A stretch of 37,388 bases of DNA, from IMG/VR virus record IMGVR_UViG_2778261448_000003; one strand, 5' to 3'. The DNA is from a virus (taxonomy: Duplodnaviria > Heunggongvirae > Uroviricota > Caudoviricetes). The notes under the pieces are model-generated. The model did no database searches. It was given only the letters and a program-made list of their open reading frames with translations, and was not told the DNA's origin. The position numbers and the translations under genes were made by a program. How positions within the stretch are numbered: the first letter of the stretch is position 1; each line of letters begins with the position of its first letter. Positions 1 to 32,506 of the stretch are shown here, one piece after another.

Positions 1-524
1 CAGGTGCAGGTGTTGGCCAGCATGATACGTCCCGGAAAAACAGCGCCGTCCGTTTCCGTCGGCGTGGACAGTACAAAGGAGGCACTCACCGCGCTCAGTT
101 CGCTGCACTGCTCGATGCGCCAGCGGCTGATCACCTCCTGCTCCGGATCGGCGTCACTGTTTCCGTTGACGAAGTTCACCGCATCCAGAAAACGGGCGTA
201 AACCTTACGCCGGACCACCGTTCCGCCGACCAGACTCTGCAGATCTTCCGCCATCCCGGTGACCATACCGTACAGGTTAGAAACCGTCAGCGTGGGGCGC
301 GTACTGGTGCCTTTGCCATTCAGTTCAAAACCACTCCCCTGAATGGGATACGGCTGATACTGTCGCCCCTGCCAGGTGACCGGCTCACCTTTTTCGTTCT
401 GCTCATTACAGAAAAAATAACGTTCTCCACCGACCTCTGTCAGATCGATTTCCCAGAGCTCGACCAGCGCGGATTGCTCCGATTTTGTACACTCATTCTG
501 TGTTTCCTGCTGTATATCCTGCAT
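1..524 (-). CDS. L: Minor tail protein L (N-terminal part; gene runs off the window start)
   Basis: Own reverse-complement translation from ATG at 522-524 reads MQDIQQETQNECTKSEQSALVELWEIDLTEV..., closely matching lambda gpL; position immediately downstream of M as in lambda. Confidence 0.85.
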   Translation of the reverse strand, partial: MQDIQQETQNECTKSEQSALVELWEIDLTEVGGERYFFCNEQNEKGEPVTWQGRQYQPYPIQGSGFELNGKGTSTRPTLTVSNLYGMVTGMAEDLQSLVGGTVVRRKVYARFLDAVNFVNGNSDADPEQEVISRWRIEQCSELSAVSASFVLSTPTETDGAVFPGRIMLANTCT

Positions 525-853
525 CAGTTTACCACCTGCTCAAAATCTGCCGTTACAGTTACCCATAACGCACCAACGCTTGCCGACCATTTACGACAAA
601 CCACCCTGACAGGTTTCCAGCCATAAGGTGGTGTCCACTGAAACGCTCTGACACCGCCATGTCGCACCAGAAAATCCTCCAGCGACTGATGTTCTCCTTT
701 ACGTATCCGGATAGTCACACTGTAAACGGGCAATACATTATTCAGCCCTGCCGGTCGCCGCTGCTCATAGCCATCCCCCAGCTTTACCGTCAACACCTTC
801 GGTTCCGATGCCACAGTCATATCAGGGCGAATTTTCCAGTGAAAAGTTTCCAT
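524..853 (-). CDS. M: Minor tail protein M
   Basis: 109 aa ORF METFHWKIRPDM...FEQVVN, same length and conserved C-terminus as lambda gpM; stop overlaps L start. Confidence 0.9.
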   Translation of the reverse strand: METFHWKIRPDMTVASEPKVLTVKLGDGYEQRRPAGLNNVLPVYSVTIRIRKGEHQSLEDFLVRHGGVRAFQWTPPYGWKPVRVVCRKWSASVGALWVTVTADFEQVVN

Positions 854-3800
854 TACCGATATGCTCCGCTTAACTGACCACCATCACGGGACTGCTGTTG
901 CATAAAGTCCGCTGCTGCTTTTTTTCCGAGGTCATAAACCACCTTCAGGGCAGCCGGACCTATCTGCCCGTTCGTACCATCGTTATTGATCTCGATGTTG
1001 TACTGCGGGGCAAACATCACCATACCTGAACCACCAATATCCGCCACAACACCCAGCTTGCCATCAGCACCACGACGCAATGGCAGAATGGCTTCAGGCC
1101 CCGCTTCTCCCATCACACCCGCGCCTTTTGCAAAAGCAAAAAACGTCGGACGGTTAACCACCGTGCCACTGTAGCGACTCAAATCAGCAGACTGATAAAC
1201 ACCACCATCAGCATTGGGCGTCACACTGGCAGTTGCTGCACTCCCCCAGCCAAACGCCGAACCAATCCCCTTAACTGCCTGCATCATGGCCATCTGCGAC
1301 ATGATTTTTGCCAGATCAGAAAGGAGCGAGGCGGTAAAAGATTTGAAGTTCAGTTTTCCGGTGGTACAGAACGTCGCCAGTGCATTACCTGCGCTGTTAA
1401 ATGCCGCTGTAAACATCTGCTCAGCGGTACCTGCCGCGTTATCCGCACTCTCTGTAAAATTCTGAAACGCCCGCATGGCACCGTTTTTCCAGTCTGCCTG
1501 CATCAGTTCCTGCTCCTGCCAGTAACGTCTGTTTTCGTTCAGTTGCCGGTTAAGACTGTCTGTCAGCATCTGCTCAGCATTCCGGTATTCATCTGTGCCA
1601 TATGTTCCTTTCTGCTTACTGTCACGCTCCAGCTGTTCCCGCTGCTGCTGATATTTTTGTTGCAGACTGAACTGTGCCTGGTATCGCTGACGCTGTTTAT
1701 CCCCCATCCCTGTCGTGGCGATATCCAGGTCATGTTGCTGACGCAGAGCCCGCTCCTCTTCCGCCAGCTGGCTGGAAAGCTGAATGGATTTTTTCTTCAA
1801 ATCATTCAGCGCCGTCTGCTTCTGCAGCTCCTGCTGTTTTGCATCCAGCAGCGTCAGTGCCTGAATCAGCTCATCCTTGTGAGCCAGCACACTCTTTTCA
1901 TCTGCCGTCAGTTTTTTCCCGTCCAGGTCGCTGATGCGCTGCTGCAGAGCCAGAAGCTGTTTATGCGCTTCTGTCATCCTTTCCGTGGCAATGCCTGCTG
2001 ACTGTCTGGCAGCAGCAATCTGTCCTTCCACCTGTGCCTGTAGCTGACTGTACTGCAGCAATAACCGGGTGGCCTCATCATTACGGGTGGCAGACGTTTT
2101 TTTCTTAATGGCTTTTTCGTAACGTTCATTTTCACGCTGTATCGCTGCGTCCCTGACCGCCTGATCGGCGTACTGCATGGCATTAATACGCGCAATTTCA
2201 CGCTGATGTCGTGCTGCTTCCGTTTCGTTCATCCGGTTCAGCGCGGCATTTTCAGCATTCCGGCGTTTCTGCTGCTCCTGATAATTTCGCTCAGCCTGCT
2301 CTTTTGCATCCTGCAAATCCTGCTGGCGTTTTCGCTCTTGCAGCGCATCCAGTTGTTGCTGATCGTATTCCCCCGTGGTGGACACCTTAGTCCACGGAAA
2401 TTTCTTCGCCCGCTGAATTTTTTCCTGCAGCGACGCAATCTGCGCATCAAGGGAATCTTCCCGACCAATGTTCATGGCCGCATCCCAGAACTGCTTCCAC
2501 CAGTCAGACAAGGTTTGCAGCGTACTGCCCAGCGCATTGAGGTTATTATCAATATCCGACGTACGTTTACCGGTTTCCTCTGCCAGTGCAGACATGGCTA
2601 TCCGGGCGGCGTCACTGGTGCGCCCCTGCTCTCCGAGCACACGGATCTGTTCAAGCTGGGTGGCTGTCAGAAAATGCAGTTCATCATCCAGCGCCTTCGC
2701 AGCACTGACCGGATCATCCTTCAGCCGTTTAAACTGACTGATGGTGTCACTGACAGACTGCCCTACCGAGCGTTCCATCTGTGCGGCAGCTTTCGCCACC
2801 ATACCAATATCGTTACCGTGAAATGCACCGCTCCCCACTACCTGCGCCAGTGACCCCGCCATGGCATGTTGCGTGATGCCATTACCGGAAAGATTTTTAC
2901 TGAGCGCCCACAACTGCCCGGCTGTCACACCGGCATAGTGTCCGGTGAGCTCAAGCTGCCGGTTAAAGGCTTCGCCTTCTTCCCGCCCCTCCATCCAGGC
3001 TTTACCCAGACCAATAACCGCAGCAGTGATCCCTCCGATAACTCCCCCCACCGCCAGGCCTTTCGGAGTCATTAATTTATCAATCCAGCCGGCACGGTTA
3101 GCCAGGGTGATCCCGGAGCCACGAAGCGCACCGAAATTACCACGCGCCAGTTCACCAATCATGACCCCCAGCTCCCGACGGGCTGCCGCACTTTTCAGTT
3201 CCAGCGAATGTGTGGTGTTTCCAGCTTTCTCCATTTTACGGATGTACACCTCCGCGGCACTGCTGCACCCAAGTTGTGCCGCCTTTGCCCGAAGCAGTTC
3301 CGTCGTGGTCATTTTCTGGCGACTTGTCTGTTCTTTCAGCTGACGAATAAATGCGGTTTTCTGGCGGGTGGCCGTTTCCTCTGCCTGTGTCAGAACGCGG
3401 GTTTTCGCTGTCACCTCAGAAATCAGGGCCAGATAATCCTGCTGAGCAATCCCGCCACTGTTTCTGGCCTGTCGGATCTGCTGCTGAATACGCTGTAACT
3501 CCTGCAGCCCCGCGCTGGCCTGTTTTACGCTGTCGATCTGACGATAAAATGCGGCTGCCATCTTATCCTGCGCCGCAGCCAGCGCAGCCGCCTGAACCTG
3601 CTCCTCCCGCATCTGACGACTCAGGGCCTCCATCCGCAGGCGCGCCCTTTCCACATCTTCCGCCAGCGAAACATGCCCCTGCGCATGCTTCACCACGGCC
3701 TGAGTCTGTATCACCGTCGCGCTGGCAGCCTGTTTCTGACTTTCCTCAAACCGTTTCATACGGGCTTCGGCCCGCTCCGCCTCCCTTGCTGTACCATTCA

Positions 3801-18244: not shown

Positions 18245-18300
18245 GCCTGTTAAAAGTATATTTACCGTTACAAATGGACCGTCACCGGGGACTCGAACCC

Positions 18301-19637
18301 ATAAGCGCTGACTTAAGGGTTGTGGTATTACGCCTGATATGATTTAACGTGCCGATGAATTACTCTCACGATAACTGGTCAGCAATTCTGGCCCATATTG
18401 GTAAGCCCGAAGAACTGGATACTTCGGCACGTAATGCCGGGGCTCTAACCCGCCGCCGCGAAATTCGTGATGCTGCAACTCTGCTACGTCTGGGGCTGGC
18501 TTACGGCCCCGGGGGGATGTCATTACGTGAAGTCACTGCATGGGCTCAGATCCATGACGTTGCAACATTATCTGACGTGGCTCTCCTGAAGCGGCTGCGG
18601 AATGCCGCCGACTGGTTTGGCATACTTGCCGCACAAACACTTGCTGTACGCGCCGCAGTTACGGGTTGTACAAGCGGAAAGAGATTGCGTCTTGTCGATG
18701 GAACAGCAATCAGTGCGCCCGGGGGCGGCAGCGCTGAATGGCGACTACATATGGGATATGATCCTCATACCTGTCAGTTCACTGATTTTGAGCTAACCGA
18801 CAGCAGAGACGCTGAACGGCTGGACCGATTTGCGCAAACGGCAGACGAGATACGCATTGCTGACCGGGGATTCGGTTCGCGTCCCGAATGTATCCGCTCA
18901 CTTGCTTTTGGAGAAGCTGATTATATCGTCCGGGTTCACTGGCGAGGATTGCGCTGGTTAACTGCAGAAGGAATGCGCTTTGACATGATGGGTTTTCTGC
19001 GCGGGCTGGATTGCGGTAAGAACGGTGAAACCACTGTAATGATAGGCAATTCAGGTAATAAAAAAGCCGGAGCTCCCTTTCCGGCACGTCTCATTGCCGT
19101 ATCACTTCCTCCCGAAAAAGCATTAATCAGTAAAACCCGACTGCTCAGCGAGAATCGTCGAAAAGGACGAGTAGTTCAGGCGGAAACGCTGGAAGCAGCG
19201 GGCCATGTGCTATTGCTAACATCATTACCGGAAGATGAATATTCAGCAGAGCAAGTGGCTGATTGTTACCGTCTGCGATGGCAAATTGAACTGGCTTTTA
19301 AGCGGCTCAAAAGTTTGCTGCACCTGGATGCTTTGCGTGCAAAGGAACCTGAACTCGCGAAAGCGTGGATATTTGCTAATCTACTCGCCGCATTTTTAAT
19401 TGACGACATAATCCAGCCATCGCTGGATTTCCCCCCCAGAAGTGCCGGATCCGAAAAGAAGAACTAACTCGTTGTGGAGAATAACAAAAATGGTCATCTG
19501 GAGCTTACAGGTGGCCATTCGTGGGACAGTATCCCTGACAGCCTACAAAACGCAATTGAAGAACGCGAGGCATCGTCTTAACGAGGCACCGAGGCGTCGC
19601 ATTCTTCAGATGGTTCAACCCTTAAGTTAGCGCTTAT
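18301..19637 (+). mobile_element. IS186 (IS4 family) insertion sequence, complete, with ~23-bp terminal inverted repeats and a ~13-bp target-site duplication GGGACTCGAACCC
   Basis: Ends CATAAGCGCTGACTTAAGGGTTG ... CAACCCTTAAGTTAGCGCTTATG; identical flanking GGGACTCGAACCC at 18288-18300 and 19638-19650; internal transposase ORF. Confidence 0.9.
18349..19467 (+). CDS. insL: IS186 transposase (DDE, IS4 family)
   Basis: 372 aa ORF MPMNYSHDNWSAILAHIGKPEELDTSARNAGALTRRREIRD... recognised as the IS186 transposase. Confidence 0.9.
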   Translation: MPMNYSHDNWSAILAHIGKPEELDTSARNAGALTRRREIRDAATLLRLGLAYGPGGMSLREVTAWAQIHDVATLSDVALLKRLRNAADWFGILAAQTLAVRAAVTGCTSGKRLRLVDGTAISAPGGGSAEWRLHMGYDPHTCQFTDFELTDSRDAERLDRFAQTADEIRIADRGFGSRPECIRSLAFGEADYIVRVHWRGLRWLTAEGMRFDMMGFLRGLDCGKNGETTVMIGNSGNKKAGAPFPARLIAVSLPPEKALISKTRLLSENRRKGRVVQAETLEAAGHVLLLTSLPEDEYSAEQVADCYRLRWQIELAFKRLKSLLHLDALRAKEPELAKAWIFANLLAAFLIDDIIQPSLDFPPRSAGSEKKN

Positions 19638-19757
19638 GGGACTCGAACCCCGCACCACAAAACAACAATACGTGTTATGCACTCTTACCCGATGAGTTAG
19701 TGACGGTTTTTTGTTCTGTGGGAATCCAGCCTGACGACAGAATTACTGGAACACCTT

Positions 19758-19961: not shown

Positions 19962-19989
19962 CAAAAAAAAAACCGCCTGCTAAGGCGGT
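19962..19989 (-). terminator. Intrinsic terminator (minus strand)
   Basis: ACCGCC-TGCTAA-GGCGGT hairpin preceded on plus by a 10-nt A-run. Confidence 0.6.
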
Positions 19990-20351: not shown

Positions 20352-20426
<75 letters not shown>

Positions 20427-20429
20427 ATA

Positions 20430-20505
<76 letters not shown>

Positions 20506-20507
20506 AC

Positions 20508-20584
20508 TGGACCGCCACCGAGGACTCGAACCTCGCACACTCAACTTAAAGGGTTAACACTCTTTCTTGGTGAACTGGTGGCGG
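20508..20584 (-). tRNA. Atypical tRNA-like gene X (isotype uncertain; possible UUU anticodon with C33)
   Basis: CCGCCAC...CGAGG-TTCGAGT-CCTCG-GTGGCGG-T-CCA: perfect acceptor and T-arm, but D-loop lacks GG and anticodon loop is CCTTTAA; paralogous to tRNA-like Y. Confidence 0.45.
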
Positions 20585-20585
20585 T

Positions 20586-20661
20586 TGGTGGCCCTTGCTG
20601 GATTCGAACCAGCGACCTGGCGATTATGAGTCGCTCGCTCTCACCACTGAGCTAAAGGGCC
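20586..20661 (-). tRNA. tRNA-Ile2-like (anticodon CAU, ileX/ileZ type)
   Basis: GGCCCTTTAGCTCAGTGGTGAGAGCGAGCGACTCATAATCGCCAGGTCGCTGGTTCGAATCCAGCAAGGGCCACCA; closer to E. coli ileX than to elongator Met. Confidence 0.75.
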
Positions 20662-21926: not shown

Positions 21927-22601
21927 TTACAGTGAAAATGCCGCCTTTTGTTTTGAACGTGTTCTCGTCACGAACAATAAAGCCTCACTATCCAGCCGAT
22001 GAAAAGTGTGTTTCATTGCAACCCAGTGACCAGTAAATGTTTTGGACCAGTTTTTAGTTGTCACTCCCGCCAGTAATGCCAGCTCCTGGTATTCATAACC
22101 TTCCCCACCAAAAAGTTCTGCTTTTACTGCCTGCGCCGCCAGCCAGATTAATTTTTTCAGGCGTTCCTGCGTTTTCCCTGCAATTTTTCTGGTACCGGAT
22201 TGAGTATTAAATTCATTCCACGCCCACTGTGTTATCGCGATCTGATATTCCCAACAAATACTCCCGCTGTAACACCACAACAACCAGGCTTTATGATGTT
22301 CTTCAAGAGACAGAACAGCCCGCCGCCACGATGATGTCGAAAACTCAACCGGACTGACCAGAGGAATTGACGTCCCCTTCGCCAGCGATTGCTTTCCCGG
22401 GATTGGTGGATTATCCCGCGTTATCATTTTTCCAGTCACTTCATCGCGGTACCGGATTTTTTTTCGCCTGTAACGCCCTGTATCGAACATGGCATTCTCT
22501 TGCCAGGCTTCAAGCTGACCTTTTGTTGCCCCACTCAAATCAGCGGTGGCGATAATGAGCTGCTCACGCACAAACTGTAAATACTGGTTATTCATGCGCA
22601 C
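21927..22601 (-). CDS. Putative late-gene antitermination protein Q
   Basis: 224 aa ORF at the Q position (after RusA, before a tR'-like terminator, tRNAs and lysis genes); N-terminus recalled as a prophage Q-family protein, not verified. Confidence 0.6.
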   Translation of the reverse strand: MRMNNQYLQFVREQLIIATADLSGATKGQLEAWQENAMFDTGRYRRKKIRYRDEVTGKMITRDNPPIPGKQSLAKGTSIPLVSPVEFSTSSWRRAVLSLEEHHKAWLLWCYSGSICWEYQIAITQWAWNEFNTQSGTRKIAGKTQERLKKLIWLAAQAVKAELFGGEGYEYQELALLAGVTTKNWSKTFTGHWVAMKHTFHRLDSEALLFVTRTRSKQKAAFSL

Positions 22602-24460: not shown

Positions 24461-24616
24461 TTACTCCTCAGGTTCGTAAGCTGTGAAGACAGCGACCTCC
24501 GTCTGGCCGGTTCGGATTCGCACCTCGCAGAGGTCTTTCCTCGTTACCAGTGCCGTCACTATGACGGTTAAACAGATGACGATCAGGGCGATTAGCATCG
24601 CCTTTTGCTGCTTCAT
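24461..24616 (-). CDS. hok: Hok/Gef-family type I toxin (51 aa membrane peptide)
   Basis: Own translation: MKQQKAMLIALIVICLTVIVTALVTRKDLCEVRIRTGQTEVAVFTAYEPEE, matching HokD/RelF as recalled; absent from the ORF track because it is under 60 aa. Confidence 0.9.
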   Translation of the reverse strand: MKQQKAMLIALIVICLTVIVTALVTRKDLCEVRIRTGQTEVAVFTAYEPEE

Positions 24617-25249
24617 AGCCTGCTTCTCCTTGACCTTTCGGTCCGTAAGAGGCTAATCTCTATGTGTCGCATAGATATGGCCTCAGATTAATGTTAAGCG
24701 TCTTGCAGGACGCGTAATGTTAACTGGGGCTTTTCTCTATCTGCCGTTGGTGTTCATGCCCGAGGCAGATAGCCTCAAGCACCCACAGCCATTCTACTTA
24801 ACTACCGTTACCTCGCCAACATGAAATCAATCAGAAAGGCGAACCATAAGAACAATAACAACAATTAAATTCATTTTCTCAAATCCTGTTAACGACGCCC
24901 ATCCGACACTAACAACTTTCATTTATTATACTATTTCCCCATCGACGCTCTGCGTTGGCATAACACAAATCTGTCTGTCCGTTTGAGTAAAGAGCGGATA
25001 TCTGCAGTTTCAAAGAAACTGCGCATGCACACGAACTATCAAAGATAGTGATAACTGAGATAAAAACATATGGAAGCCTTCGGCATTTAAAAATAACAGC
25101 AAATCATATAAAAGGAAAGAGATAAGCAACATTTACATAACATGTATCACGATACGCCCCAGTGTTAATAAAAAGACTATCACTTTATTCTTTTATAATG
25201 TTAGTTTGCACTAGCAAGTGCCACTCCGAACAGAAAAAGGATACATGTA

Positions 25250-27061
25250 ATGAAGCTACAGCAATTTAATATTAAAAATTACAAGTCGATAAAAGATGAA
25301 ATAGAAGTATATATCGATGATATAGTTGTGCTAATTGGTCCAAATAACTCTGGAAAGTCAACAATATTAGATGCGTATGAAAAGTTTGCATCTTTAGGAT
25401 CAGCAAAAGGCCTGACTGCTCATGATTTTTATAACTCAGATATATCTATACCAATTGAAATGTGCGGAATTTTCACTGATATCACTGATGATGATATTCG
25501 TACATTAGGGGGAGAGAAATGGTTTTATAAAGATGATGCTCTTGACAGAAGAAATATGGCAAGAAAGTATGGGGGAGATTGGGAGAAAAATAATACACCA
25601 TTGGAAAGCAAACTCTATTATTGTGTTAAATGGGTTTGGTCACATCCAGAAAAAGCAGCCCAAAAACAATCCTATGGCCTTGATGATGCCTCTGGCAAAC
25701 GCATATTTATTGATGGGGGCTCTGGGGGACTTGACACACTACTACAAAGCCGAGTTCCTCAACCAATAAGAATAAGCCCAGATAAATCCATGGATGAAAC
25801 TAAAAAAATTATCATAAGTTTCTTAAAGGAAGATGCAAAAGATGAGTTACTGAAAACAGGGGAAAGTAAAGCTGATATAATACAGAAAATACAAGAGTTG
25901 ACAGACACTCTTATGAAAGATTCCAAATCAAAAATCGATGATCTTCTACAGCAGGTCTCCAAATCATCATCATCTGTTTTTCCTGGGCTAGAACTGGAAT
26001 TAAACATACTTTCCAAGGATCCCGTAGATGCGGATGTTATGGTTTCAGAATCTAACCTTACAGTGAAAATGGATGGGATAAATAGCTCTCTTCTCGAGAA
26101 CCAAGGTCACGGTGTTCGCCGCTCCGTTTTATGGTCTGCTTTGCAAATTTTGACTCACGAATCTCATGCACGAGATAAAATAAAAAAAGCGAAAGGTAAG
26201 CCTATCTCTGTTGAGAAAAAACAATATATTTTATTGATTGATGAGCCTGAATCATTTCTTCACCCTCCTATAATTAGAAGTGCGAGGGACTCGCTTTATG
26301 ATTTTGCAGCAAACAATGATAACTGGCAGGTGATGGCTACAACACACTCCCCTGTATTCATAGACTTATCCAAGAAGCACACGACTATAATTAGGATAGA
26401 AAAAGACAAATCTCTAAATAAAACAATATCTACAGATGAACTATCTTTTTCTGAAGAGGAAAAAGATAATATGAAAATGATAAGATTATGTAACCCAATG
26501 GTTAATGAGTTTTTCTTTTACGACAATATAATATTAGTTGAAGGACCAACTGAAAAAATCGTCATTAACAAAATATGTGATATTGTCGGAGTTGATTATC
26601 ATATCATTGACTGTTTAGGAAAAGGGAATATAAAAACATTTGCTAAAATATTAAATCAATTTAACGTTGAGTATATAGCAGTACATGACTCCGACATTCC
26701 AAAATGCTTAAAGCAAGGAAGCGTTTCAGGTAATGGAGCATGGGGTTCAAATGTATCCATAATGAACGAATGCTCTAAAAGTAAAAAACCAATGGTATTT
26801 ATTCAAATACCTCATTTCGAAGGACTGTTTTTTAAAAATTTCAATCCATCAAACAAAGTTGAAACAGTAACATCAGTTCTATCTAATAATTTAACACCAG
26901 AATACAAAGCAATATTTGATACATATAGCAGAATTTTAAACAAAGATCCTTCTGTTTTTATCAGCTCCAACGAAAAAATGATAGACATGTATCATGCATT
27001 TTATGCCAGTAATAAAAACCAAATTGAGACGCTAAAGAATCCTGAAATCTGGATCCTTTAA
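25250..27061 (+). CDS. OLD-family nuclease: N-terminal ABC-type ATPase fused to C-terminal Toprim domain (class-1, stand-alone)
   Basis: 603 aa; Walker A GPNNSGKST, Walker B/D-loop LLIDEPESFLHP, Toprim motifs LVEGPTE and HDSD; very AT-rich gene unlike the flanking prophage DNA. Confidence 0.8.
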   Translation: MKLQQFNIKNYKSIKDEIEVYIDDIVVLIGPNNSGKSTILDAYEKFASLGSAKGLTAHDFYNSDISIPIEMCGIFTDITDDDIRTLGGEKWFYKDDALDRRNMARKYGGDWEKNNTPLESKLYYCVKWVWSHPEKAAQKQSYGLDDASGKRIFIDGGSGGLDTLLQSRVPQPIRISPDKSMDETKKIIISFLKEDAKDELLKTGESKADIIQKIQELTDTLMKDSKSKIDDLLQQVSKSSSSVFPGLELELNILSKDPVDADVMVSESNLTVKMDGINSSLLENQGHGVRRSVLWSALQILTHESHARDKIKKAKGKPISVEKKQYILLIDEPESFLHPPIIRSARDSLYDFAANNDNWQVMATTHSPVFIDLSKKHTTIIRIEKDKSLNKTISTDELSFSEEEKDNMKMIRLCNPMVNEFFFYDNIILVEGPTEKIVINKICDIVGVDYHIIDCLGKGNIKTFAKILNQFNVEYIAVHDSDIPKCLKQGSVSGNGAWGSNVSIMNECSKSKKPMVFIQIPHFEGLFFKNFNPSNKVETVTSVLSNNLTPEYKAIFDTYSRILNKDPSVFISSNEKMIDMYHAFYASNKNQIETLKNPEIWIL

Positions 27062-31945: not shown

Positions 31946-32506
31946 TTCACCCTCCTGAGGGTTGGTGATTAAGGAGTTCTCCACGGGTGAGGTGGAGTGC
32001 GTGCGCCGGACACGGGTGAGCATACGGCACTGACAGTTTACTGAAAGGATATTTCCCTGAAAAGTCAGACCATAACGCGAAAGCGCACGGCGAGGTAGCT
32101 GGTTCATAGATAGCCTGTCGTTAAATTTTCGTCGACCGTGCGCTTCCGGTTGTGGCACTCCGCGAAATGGCGCGACGGTAAGTATGGCGGGGTTATTCCT
32201 TCCCCGTTGAGGACACCGGGTTGTCAGGTTGACCATACGCTTAAGTGACAACCCCGCTACAACGCCCTCTGTTATCAATTTTCTGGTGACGTTTGGCGGT
32301 ATCAGTTTTACTCCGTGGCTGCTCTGCCGCCCTTTTTAAAGTGAATTTTGTGATGCGGTGAATGCGGCTAAGCGCACGCGGAACAGTTAAAACCAAAAAC
32401 AGTGTTATGGGTGGATTCTCTGTATCCGACGTTAATTGTTAACTGGTTAACGTCACCTGGAGGCACCAGGCACCGCATCACAAAATTCATTGTTGAGGAC
32501 GCGATA

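Follow-up and report, generated by a model that had tools for sequence, protein, structure and literature searches.

What directs an insertion sequence (IS) into the T-arm of a tRNA-like gene, and what does such an event cost the prophage that carries the gene? This question is raised by the 37,388-nt stretch of DNA analysed here (the window), which comprises the whole of the draft contig NOCY01000038.1 (GCA_002518045.1) from a lambdoid prophage and ends inside the tail region. In this window, a copy of IS186/IS421 splits an 82-nt tRNA-like gene of the minus strand. Based on the results below, it is highly probable that the element was directed into the T-arm by its target motif and that the insertion is near-neutral. 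The element, the target rule and the duplication are those of textbook IS186, so that this is an ordinary, well-explained insertion involving no new mechanism.

The inserted element and the gene it splits

The element and the repeats at its borders are located as follows:

18298..19640, plus strand: IS186/IS421 element (alignment to K-12 IS186B)
18298..18322, plus strand: left terminal inverted repeat (inverted-repeat match and comparison with K-12)
19616..19640, plus strand: right terminal inverted repeat (inverted-repeat match and comparison with K-12)
18355..19467, plus strand: insL transposase gene, 370 aa (translation compared to K-12 InsL2; PF01609)
18288..18300, no strand: target-site duplication, left copy, GGGACTCGAACCC (repeat match)
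19638..19650, no strand: target-site duplication, right copy (repeat match)

Compared to IS186B of Escherichia coli K-12 (NC_000913.3, 608008-609351), the IS4-family element showed two substitutions and no gaps over 1344 aligned nt. This near-identity over the whole element and the length of about 1.34 kb identify it as a complete IS186, as had been stated in the initial annotation. The inverted ends comprise 25 nt each and are complementary to 96%. With regard to the reference-type terminal inverted repeats (about 23 bp, CATAAGCGCTAACTTAAGGGTTG), the right end is identical to that of IS186B and the left end differs by one substitution, an A>G exchange at 18310. The second substitution, C>A at 18550, changes leucine 66 of the transposase to isoleucine (L66I) relative to K-12 InsL2. 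Neither change was present in six full-length IS186 copies from other genomes, and the one at 18310 was likewise missing in three further copies that were compared at this position alone. The L66I variant was also observed in another context on a metagenome contig (L140), which looks chimeric.

The transposase gene is an intact single open reading frame (ORF) for a DDE transposase (InsL), in which the DDE_Tnp_1 domain was recognised (PF01609, E=1.3e-26, 94 bits). The gene is read in the direction opposing the phage late operon. Matching copies are named 'IS4-like element IS421 family transposase' by the Prokaryotic Genome Annotation Pipeline (PGAP). Judging from the intact transposase and ends, the copy is predicted to be of the active type.

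The direct repeat at 18288-18300 and 19638-19650 shows an identity of 100%, which bears out the identical 13-bp duplication described initially. Since the termini of the IS (CCC...GGG) share bases with the target (GGGG...CCCC), the boundary of the element is ambiguous. The 13 nt represent the maximal repeat, and they can be read either as a 13-nt duplication flanking an IS of 1337 bp (18301-19637, the element without the ambiguous end bases) or as a duplicated 7-nt core, ACTCGAA (18291-18297 and 19641-19647), flanking an IS of 1343 bp that includes the terminal CCC/GGG. A visible repeat of 13 nt results because the IS ends in CCC/GGG. G18287 and the left copy together form the left half of the target GGGG-ACTCGAA-CCCC, while C19651 completes the CCCC at the right. 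The reading with a 7-nt core corresponds to the way in which IS186 duplications are described by Lee et al. (2016, PMC5009759), and an equal ambiguity of the ends exists at the hokE site of K-12 (GGGG-AGTAAT-CCCC).

When the IS and one copy of the repeat were removed, the resulting sequence was found uninterrupted over 508 of 508 nt in 16 complete E. coli genomes, in seven of them at 99.8%. These empty-site relatives, which include RM10740 (L001) and HCP5S3_I2 (L010), contain the intact tRNA-like sequence, as had been anticipated for related prophages lacking the IS. Among all 5426 complete E. coli genomes, no insertion at exactly this site was found. A scan for the exact junctions with one genome per species gave no match either, which carries little weight with a single genome per species, and the reconstructed empty site had no near match among the deposited phage genomes. 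With a draft contig and a multi-copy element such as IS186 (an IS421-family element occurs in 2225 of the 5426 genomes, with a median of three places per carrying genome), a contig joined artificially through a repeated IS has to be considered; the chimeric appearance of the metagenome contig with the L66I variant also points in this direction. Nonetheless, such an artefact is hardly conceivable here. The flanks joined by the element are unbroken in the 16 genomes, the target duplication is perfect and of the IS186 type, and the independent Logan assembly of SRR3993852 comprises identical junctions on both sides. Moreover, the two substitutions, found in no other copy compared, lie together on one contig.

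The gene hit by this insertion consists of two parts:

19638..19706, minus strand: 5' part of the tRNA-like gene (acceptor 5' strand, D-arm, aberrant anticodon arm, 9-nt variable region, T-stem 5' strand and T-loop)
18275..18300, minus strand: 3' part of the tRNA-like gene (T-loop, T-stem 3' strand, acceptor 3' strand, discriminator U and encoded CCA)

The split into 69 nt (19706-19638) and 26 nt (18300-18275) given in the initial annotation proved exact. Joined with one copy of the repeat, both parts result in 82 nt, which ARAGORN calls as a tRNA: CCGTCAC-TA-ACTC-ATCGGGTAA-GAGT-GC-ATAAC-ACGTATT-GTTGT-TTTGTGGTG-CGGGG-TTCGAGT-CCCCG-GTGACGG-T-CCA. The T-arm comprises the stem CGGGG/CCCCG and a 7-nt loop, and the duplication covers this loop and three stem pairs on each side, in agreement with its earlier assignment to the T-loop and T-stem.

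A comparison with the prophage tRNA-Lys(UUU) of strain 95-3322 showed an identity of 81.7%; the acceptor stem (CCGTCAC/GTGACGG), the T-arm, the discriminator U and the encoded CCA are the same in both. Further relatives are prophage tRNA-Arg genes and a 'tRNA-OTHER' of an E. coli lambdoid prophage (L012), which equals the tRNA-like gene in its length of 82 nt. In the register homologous to tRNA-Lys, all stems are paired (acceptor 7/7, D 4/4, anticodon 5/5 with one G-U, T 5/5). Some pairs are changed on both sides compared to tRNA-Lys, namely in the D stem (GCTC/GAGC to ACTC/GAGT) and in the anticodon stem (U-A to A-U). Differences from tRNA-Lys are found in the 2-nt connector, the 9-nt variable region and the anticodon loop ACGUAUU, in which C33 and U37 take the place of the expected U33 and purine 37. 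The register 'Val(AAC)' proposed by ARAGORN restores U33 and A37, but it leaves the D stem mismatched and a variable loop of 14 nt unpaired. Both isotypes, tRNA-Val(AAC) in the ARAGORN register and tRNA-Tyr(GUA) in the homologous one, were rejected due to these non-canonical features, and no isotype is claimed.

For the intact copy in L001, the best match within the Rfam tRNA clan reached 19.4 bits with the transfer-messenger RNA (tmRNA) model, compared to a tRNA gathering score of 29 bits. Copies with at least 95% identity to the 82-nt gene exist in 34 genomes. No tRNA annotation by PGAP was found on the nine such copies listed, on the full-length empty-site matches or on the three loci read, and deposited phage genomes gave at most distant matches of about 74% over the full length. 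The split gene is a paralogue of the prophage tRNA-Lys(UUU) that has diverged and become non-canonical but kept the structure, for which 'tRNA-like gene' is the right term.

A second tRNA-like sequence was observed on the minus strand at 20506-20585, between tRNA(CAT) and tRNA-Thr. It represents a degenerate tRNA-Lys(UUU) with a D-stem weakened to G-U pairs and a D-loop lacking GG, and it was called neither by ARAGORN nor by Rfam. Its counterpart in L001 (5352-5428) is called tRNA-Lys.

The T-arm as a target of IS186

The consensus target of IS186 was reportedly first described by SaiSree et al. in 2001. Based on 59 new insertions, IS186 lands at 5'-GGGG(N6/N7)CCCC-3' in either orientation and duplicates the core of 6-7 nt, and K-12 contains 19 N6 and 35 N7 target sites in all (Lee et al. 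2016, PMC5009759). The plus strand of the T-arm reads GGGG-ACTCGAA-CCCC and thereby comprises a perfect N7 site at 18287, composed of four of the five G:C stem pairs and the 7-nt T-loop. In the reconstructed pre-insertion contig of 36,038 bp this T-arm is the single perfect motif, and its core is the sequence that was doubled. The present window contains no perfect GGGG(N6/N7)CCCC, at a chance expectation of about 0.4-0.5 per motif length. None of the other tRNAs of the window has a T-stem with four consecutive G:C pairs, and all of them are untouched by IS186. The position of the insertion can therefore be explained by the T-arm being a perfect copy of the IS186 target motif. While the placement of the element in the T-arm of a tRNA-like gene had been recognised initially, this explanation had been missed. 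We infer that target preference alone fixed the position.

In the course of events proposed here, an IS186 copy would have transposed into the sole motif match of the lambdoid prophage contig, the T-arm of the 82-nt gene. A staggered cut around the core followed by repair would have doubled ACTCGAA, and the tRNA-like gene would have been destroyed. T-arms with G4/C4 stems would be natural targets of IS186 in general, and such insertions would persist since the loss of a prophage tRNA would be harmless to the cell.

Insertions of IS186 were also observed in other T-arms. These include the prophage tRNA-Arg(UCU) of strain TUM9803 (L003), the prophage tRNA-Arg(UCG) of Z1323PEC0012 (L008) and the chromosomal tRNA-Leu(CAG) of strain 300444 (L004), which belongs to leuQPV. 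Furthermore, a prophage pseudo-tRNA between tRNA(CAT) and tRNA-Arg is hit in one orientation in eight genomes (H117-H124; L007 and L009 were read), and its T-arm is hit in the reverse orientation in L135, which was read, with eight more rows (H179-H186) showing an equal match profile. Including the window, at least six independent T-arm events can be counted. In all these cases the same place of the cloverleaf is affected and the maximal repeats comprise 12-13 nt. The prophage cases (L003, L007, L008, L009 and L135) lie in tRNA clusters of the tRNA(CAT)-Arg-Arg type downstream of the antiterminator gene Q and, as in the window, between Q and the lysis genes. In these, the tRNA-Arg genes or the pseudo-tRNA within the cluster were hit, whereas the target in the window is a separate tRNA-like gene about 650 nt downstream of the tRNA cluster. 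An apparent orientation bias of the T-arm insertions was rejected, as it arose from ranking the matches by flank similarity, and a query in the reverse orientation found L135.

The T-arms of gltU and leuV/P/Q of K-12, four genes compared directly, are perfect N7 motifs as well. With the four Glu and four Leu(CAG) gene copies of this strain, at least 8 of the 35 N7 sites of K-12 are expected to be T-arms.

Two of the genes truncated by the IS are listed by PGAP as short tRNAs without any mark of disruption, namely a 63-nt tRNA-Arg in L003 (2857-2919) and a 73-nt tRNA-Leu in L004 (2845-2917).

A loose scan with GGGGN{6,7}CCCATAAGCGCT was applied to one genome per species. With 16 specified bases and 596 Gb, about 500 chance matches were estimated, so that the scan does not represent a survey and solely matches with paired inverted ends were used as side observations. 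Among the matches listed, an Acidobacteriaceae metagenome-assembled genome (MAG) contains a distant IS186 relative of 1.32 kb (L069, 4790-6111) with CCCATAAGCGCT termini, an ORF of 376 aa and a maximal repeat of 13 nt. This element is located in GGGGGTTCGACCCCCC, after which comes ...CCCGGCACCA; the interrupted sequence represents the T-arm of a 3' fragment of a tRNA, and no complete tRNA was called there by ARAGORN. Also among the matches listed were elements of about 220-245 bp with IS186-like termini (CCCATAAGCGCTCAAATAAG...) at both ends and GGGG...CCCC flanks. Three of them belong to one Syntrophobacteraceae MAG (L040, 128-371; L051, 297-517; L089, 4799-5042) and one to an uncultured deltaproteobacterium MAG (L079, 6220-6437). 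By their termini and size, these elements look like non-autonomous derivatives of an IS186-family element, i.e. putative miniature inverted-repeat transposable elements (MITEs).

Another reading of the T-arm insertions would be that IS186 recognises a DNA hairpin or cruciform, or a transcribed tRNA gene, instead of the G4/C4 sequence, and that tRNA-like genes are targeted as such. Each canonical target (G4, 6-7 nt, C4) is able to fold into a stem of 4 bp and a loop of 6-7 nt, just as a T-arm does; several tRNA and tRNA-like genes are hit, and the distant relative in the Acidobacteriaceae MAG also lies in the T-arm of a tRNA fragment. Against this stands that most of the known hot spots (fimA, menC, the lon promoter and the hokE site) are not tRNAs, and that the tRNAs of the window without G4/C4 T-stems were left untouched. 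Since the sequence motif alone explains every case found, recognition of a hairpin or of a tRNA gene is considered very improbable.

Effect of the insertion on the prophage

The genes and terminators around the insertion are arranged on the minus strand in the following order: Q, an AraC-type gene, the tRNA cluster, two hairpins, the split gene, a third hairpin, two holins, an M15 endolysin, Nu1, the large terminase, the portal and the tape measure. The features in the surroundings of the insertion are:

21927..22601, minus strand: antiterminator Q, PF06323 (Pfam), upstream of the late region
21401-20688, minus strand: AraC-type gene
20352..20661, minus strand: late-region tRNA cluster
20661-20586, minus strand: tRNA(CAT)
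20585-20506, minus strand: degenerate Lys(UUU)-like sequence
20505-20430, minus strand: tRNA-Thr(UGU)
20426-20352, minus strand: tRNA-Gly(UCC)
19972..19989, minus strand: terminator-like hairpin ACCGCCTTAGCAGGCGGT followed by T9, also in L001
19767..19790, minus strand: terminator-like hairpin upstream of the tRNA-like gene (GCCAGCC...GGCTGGC with T7 after it), also in L001
18229..18248, minus strand: terminator-like hairpin directly downstream of the tRNA-like gene (AGGCTCGCTTCGGCGAGCTT with a T run after it), identical in L001
16704..17888, minus strand: lysis cassette with holin (Phage_holin_8), holin (Phage_holin_3_7) and M15 peptidase endolysin

Accordingly, the insertion has the late-region tRNA cluster (20661-20352) on one side and the holin and endolysin genes (17888-16704) on the other, as the initial annotation had placed it. 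From this position, a polar effect on late transcription had been suggested, and with it a possible reason for the prophage being cryptic; neither suggestion found support. Along the late strand, three consensus intrinsic terminators separate the tRNAs from the lysis genes, and the same sequences are present in the empty-site relative L001. Since these three terminators already precede the lysis and head genes, the expression of the latter must depend on antitermination by Q. In lambda, an RNA polymerase antiterminated by Q also passes terminators that lie within inserted DNA. We infer that the insertion affects Q-antiterminated late transcription little, if at all. Furthermore, all phage genes compared within the 37-kb window were of full length with complete Pfam domains: Q, RusA, both holins, M15 endolysin, Nu1, large terminase, portal, tape measure, exonuclease and integrase.

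These results also bear on the alternative that the insertion is functionally important, i.e. that it blocks or strongly reduces late transcription into the lysis and morphogenesis genes, disables the prophage and may even have been selected as a step of domestication. The IS is situated between the Q/tRNA region and the holins, and through the insertion the late strand gains 1.34 kb and a further terminator-like hairpin (19085-19066). In addition, IS186 was found in only one of 50,697 deposited phage records, which is a partial record, and IS-bearing phages are seldom recovered; the prophages of L003, L008 and L011, which carry such insertions or lie near them, contain frameshifted or truncated genes. 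Nonetheless, this alternative is considered unlikely. The three terminators lie on the same path here and in the empty-site relatives, so that late expression needs a terminator-resistant polymerase anyway, and the phage genes compared are intact. The pseudo-tRNA site is hit both ways round, which fits a choice of target better than a selected regulation, and the scarcity of IS186 in phage records would equally be expected if IS copies just build up in resident prophages. Altogether, the only certain consequence of the insertion is the loss of the tRNA-like gene, and for the host it would be close to neutral.

Several points weigh against a target-directed, near-neutral insertion as the full account. 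T-arm insertions make up a small share of the IS186 places, with about 20 recognised among about 8450, and T-arms are thus permitted rather than main targets of IS186. This tally is both biased and incomplete, as the matches were ranked by flank similarity to the site in the window. The use of this T-arm as a target is predicted from the sequence, and the effect on late transcription was argued from the terminator content and textbook Q biology.

Relation to known systems and further observations

The known IS186 hot spots in E. coli, i.e. the lon promoter, fimA, menC and the copy next to hokE in K-12, share with the present case the element, the target rule, the duplication of the core and the ambiguity of the ends. 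In contrast to these hot spots, the motif is supplied here by a tRNA-type T-arm within a prophage. Lee et al. (2016, PMC5009759) do not name tRNA genes as targets, and the sole use of 'tRNA' in this paper concerns unrelated deletions. Full-text searches of the literature on IS186/IS421 combined with tRNA or prophage returned no report of T-arm targeting. The exact correspondence of the N7 motif to a G4/C4 T-arm, and the repeated insertions into dispensable prophage tRNAs, may not have been remarked on before.

A tRNA-type landing site and stem-loop symmetry in the recognised sequence are also known from the integrases of phages and islands at tRNA 3' ends, and from Ty3 and the Dictyostelium TRE elements near genes transcribed by RNA polymerase III. 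Those systems involve tyrosine integrases that restore the tRNA or guidance by RNA polymerase III factors, whereas in the present case a DDE transposase uses a short G4-N7-C4 motif and the gene is destroyed.

The link between the target rule of IS186 and the geometry of the T-arm joins two facts that were known separately. From this link the tRNA genes open to attack by IS186 can be predicted, such as those for Glu and Leu(CAG) in K-12 and, in lambdoid prophages, the Arg/Lys family. For annotation, an IS186 next to a truncated prophage tRNA marks a split tRNA or tRNA-like gene that was missed or shortened by the pipelines. It is rather doubtful, though conceivable, that G4/C4 T-arms are general and unremarked safe sites for the IS186 family, with dispensable prophage tRNAs and tRNA-like genes as harbours that would carry the IS on viable temperate phages between hosts. 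In this reading, the connection of target and T-arm may also be old, as the distant relative in the Acidobacteriaceae MAG lies in a tRNA-derived T-arm.

Besides these findings, some minor observations were made in the window. The stretch of about 200 nt between the first two hairpins could be a small RNA, for which the Rfam matches to VqmR and Qrr are far below the threshold. Together with isrB, these matches, obtained in the intact locus at a permissive E-value, were rejected as chance, since they stay below the threshold and stem from the hairpins of the terminators. An OLD-family nuclease gene (AAA_15 ATPase and TOPRIM) is located at 25250-27061 on the plus strand. In the closest relative, L010, this place is taken by genes for a Ser/Thr kinase and a PP2C phosphatase, and based on this exchange the nuclease gene looks like a swapped defence-type accessory gene. 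Two Rfam matches were above the threshold, the sok antitoxin RNA at 24614-24784 on the minus strand (101 bits) and DicF at 32281-32332 on the plus strand (75 bits), both of which are typical of Qin/Rac-like lambdoid prophages.

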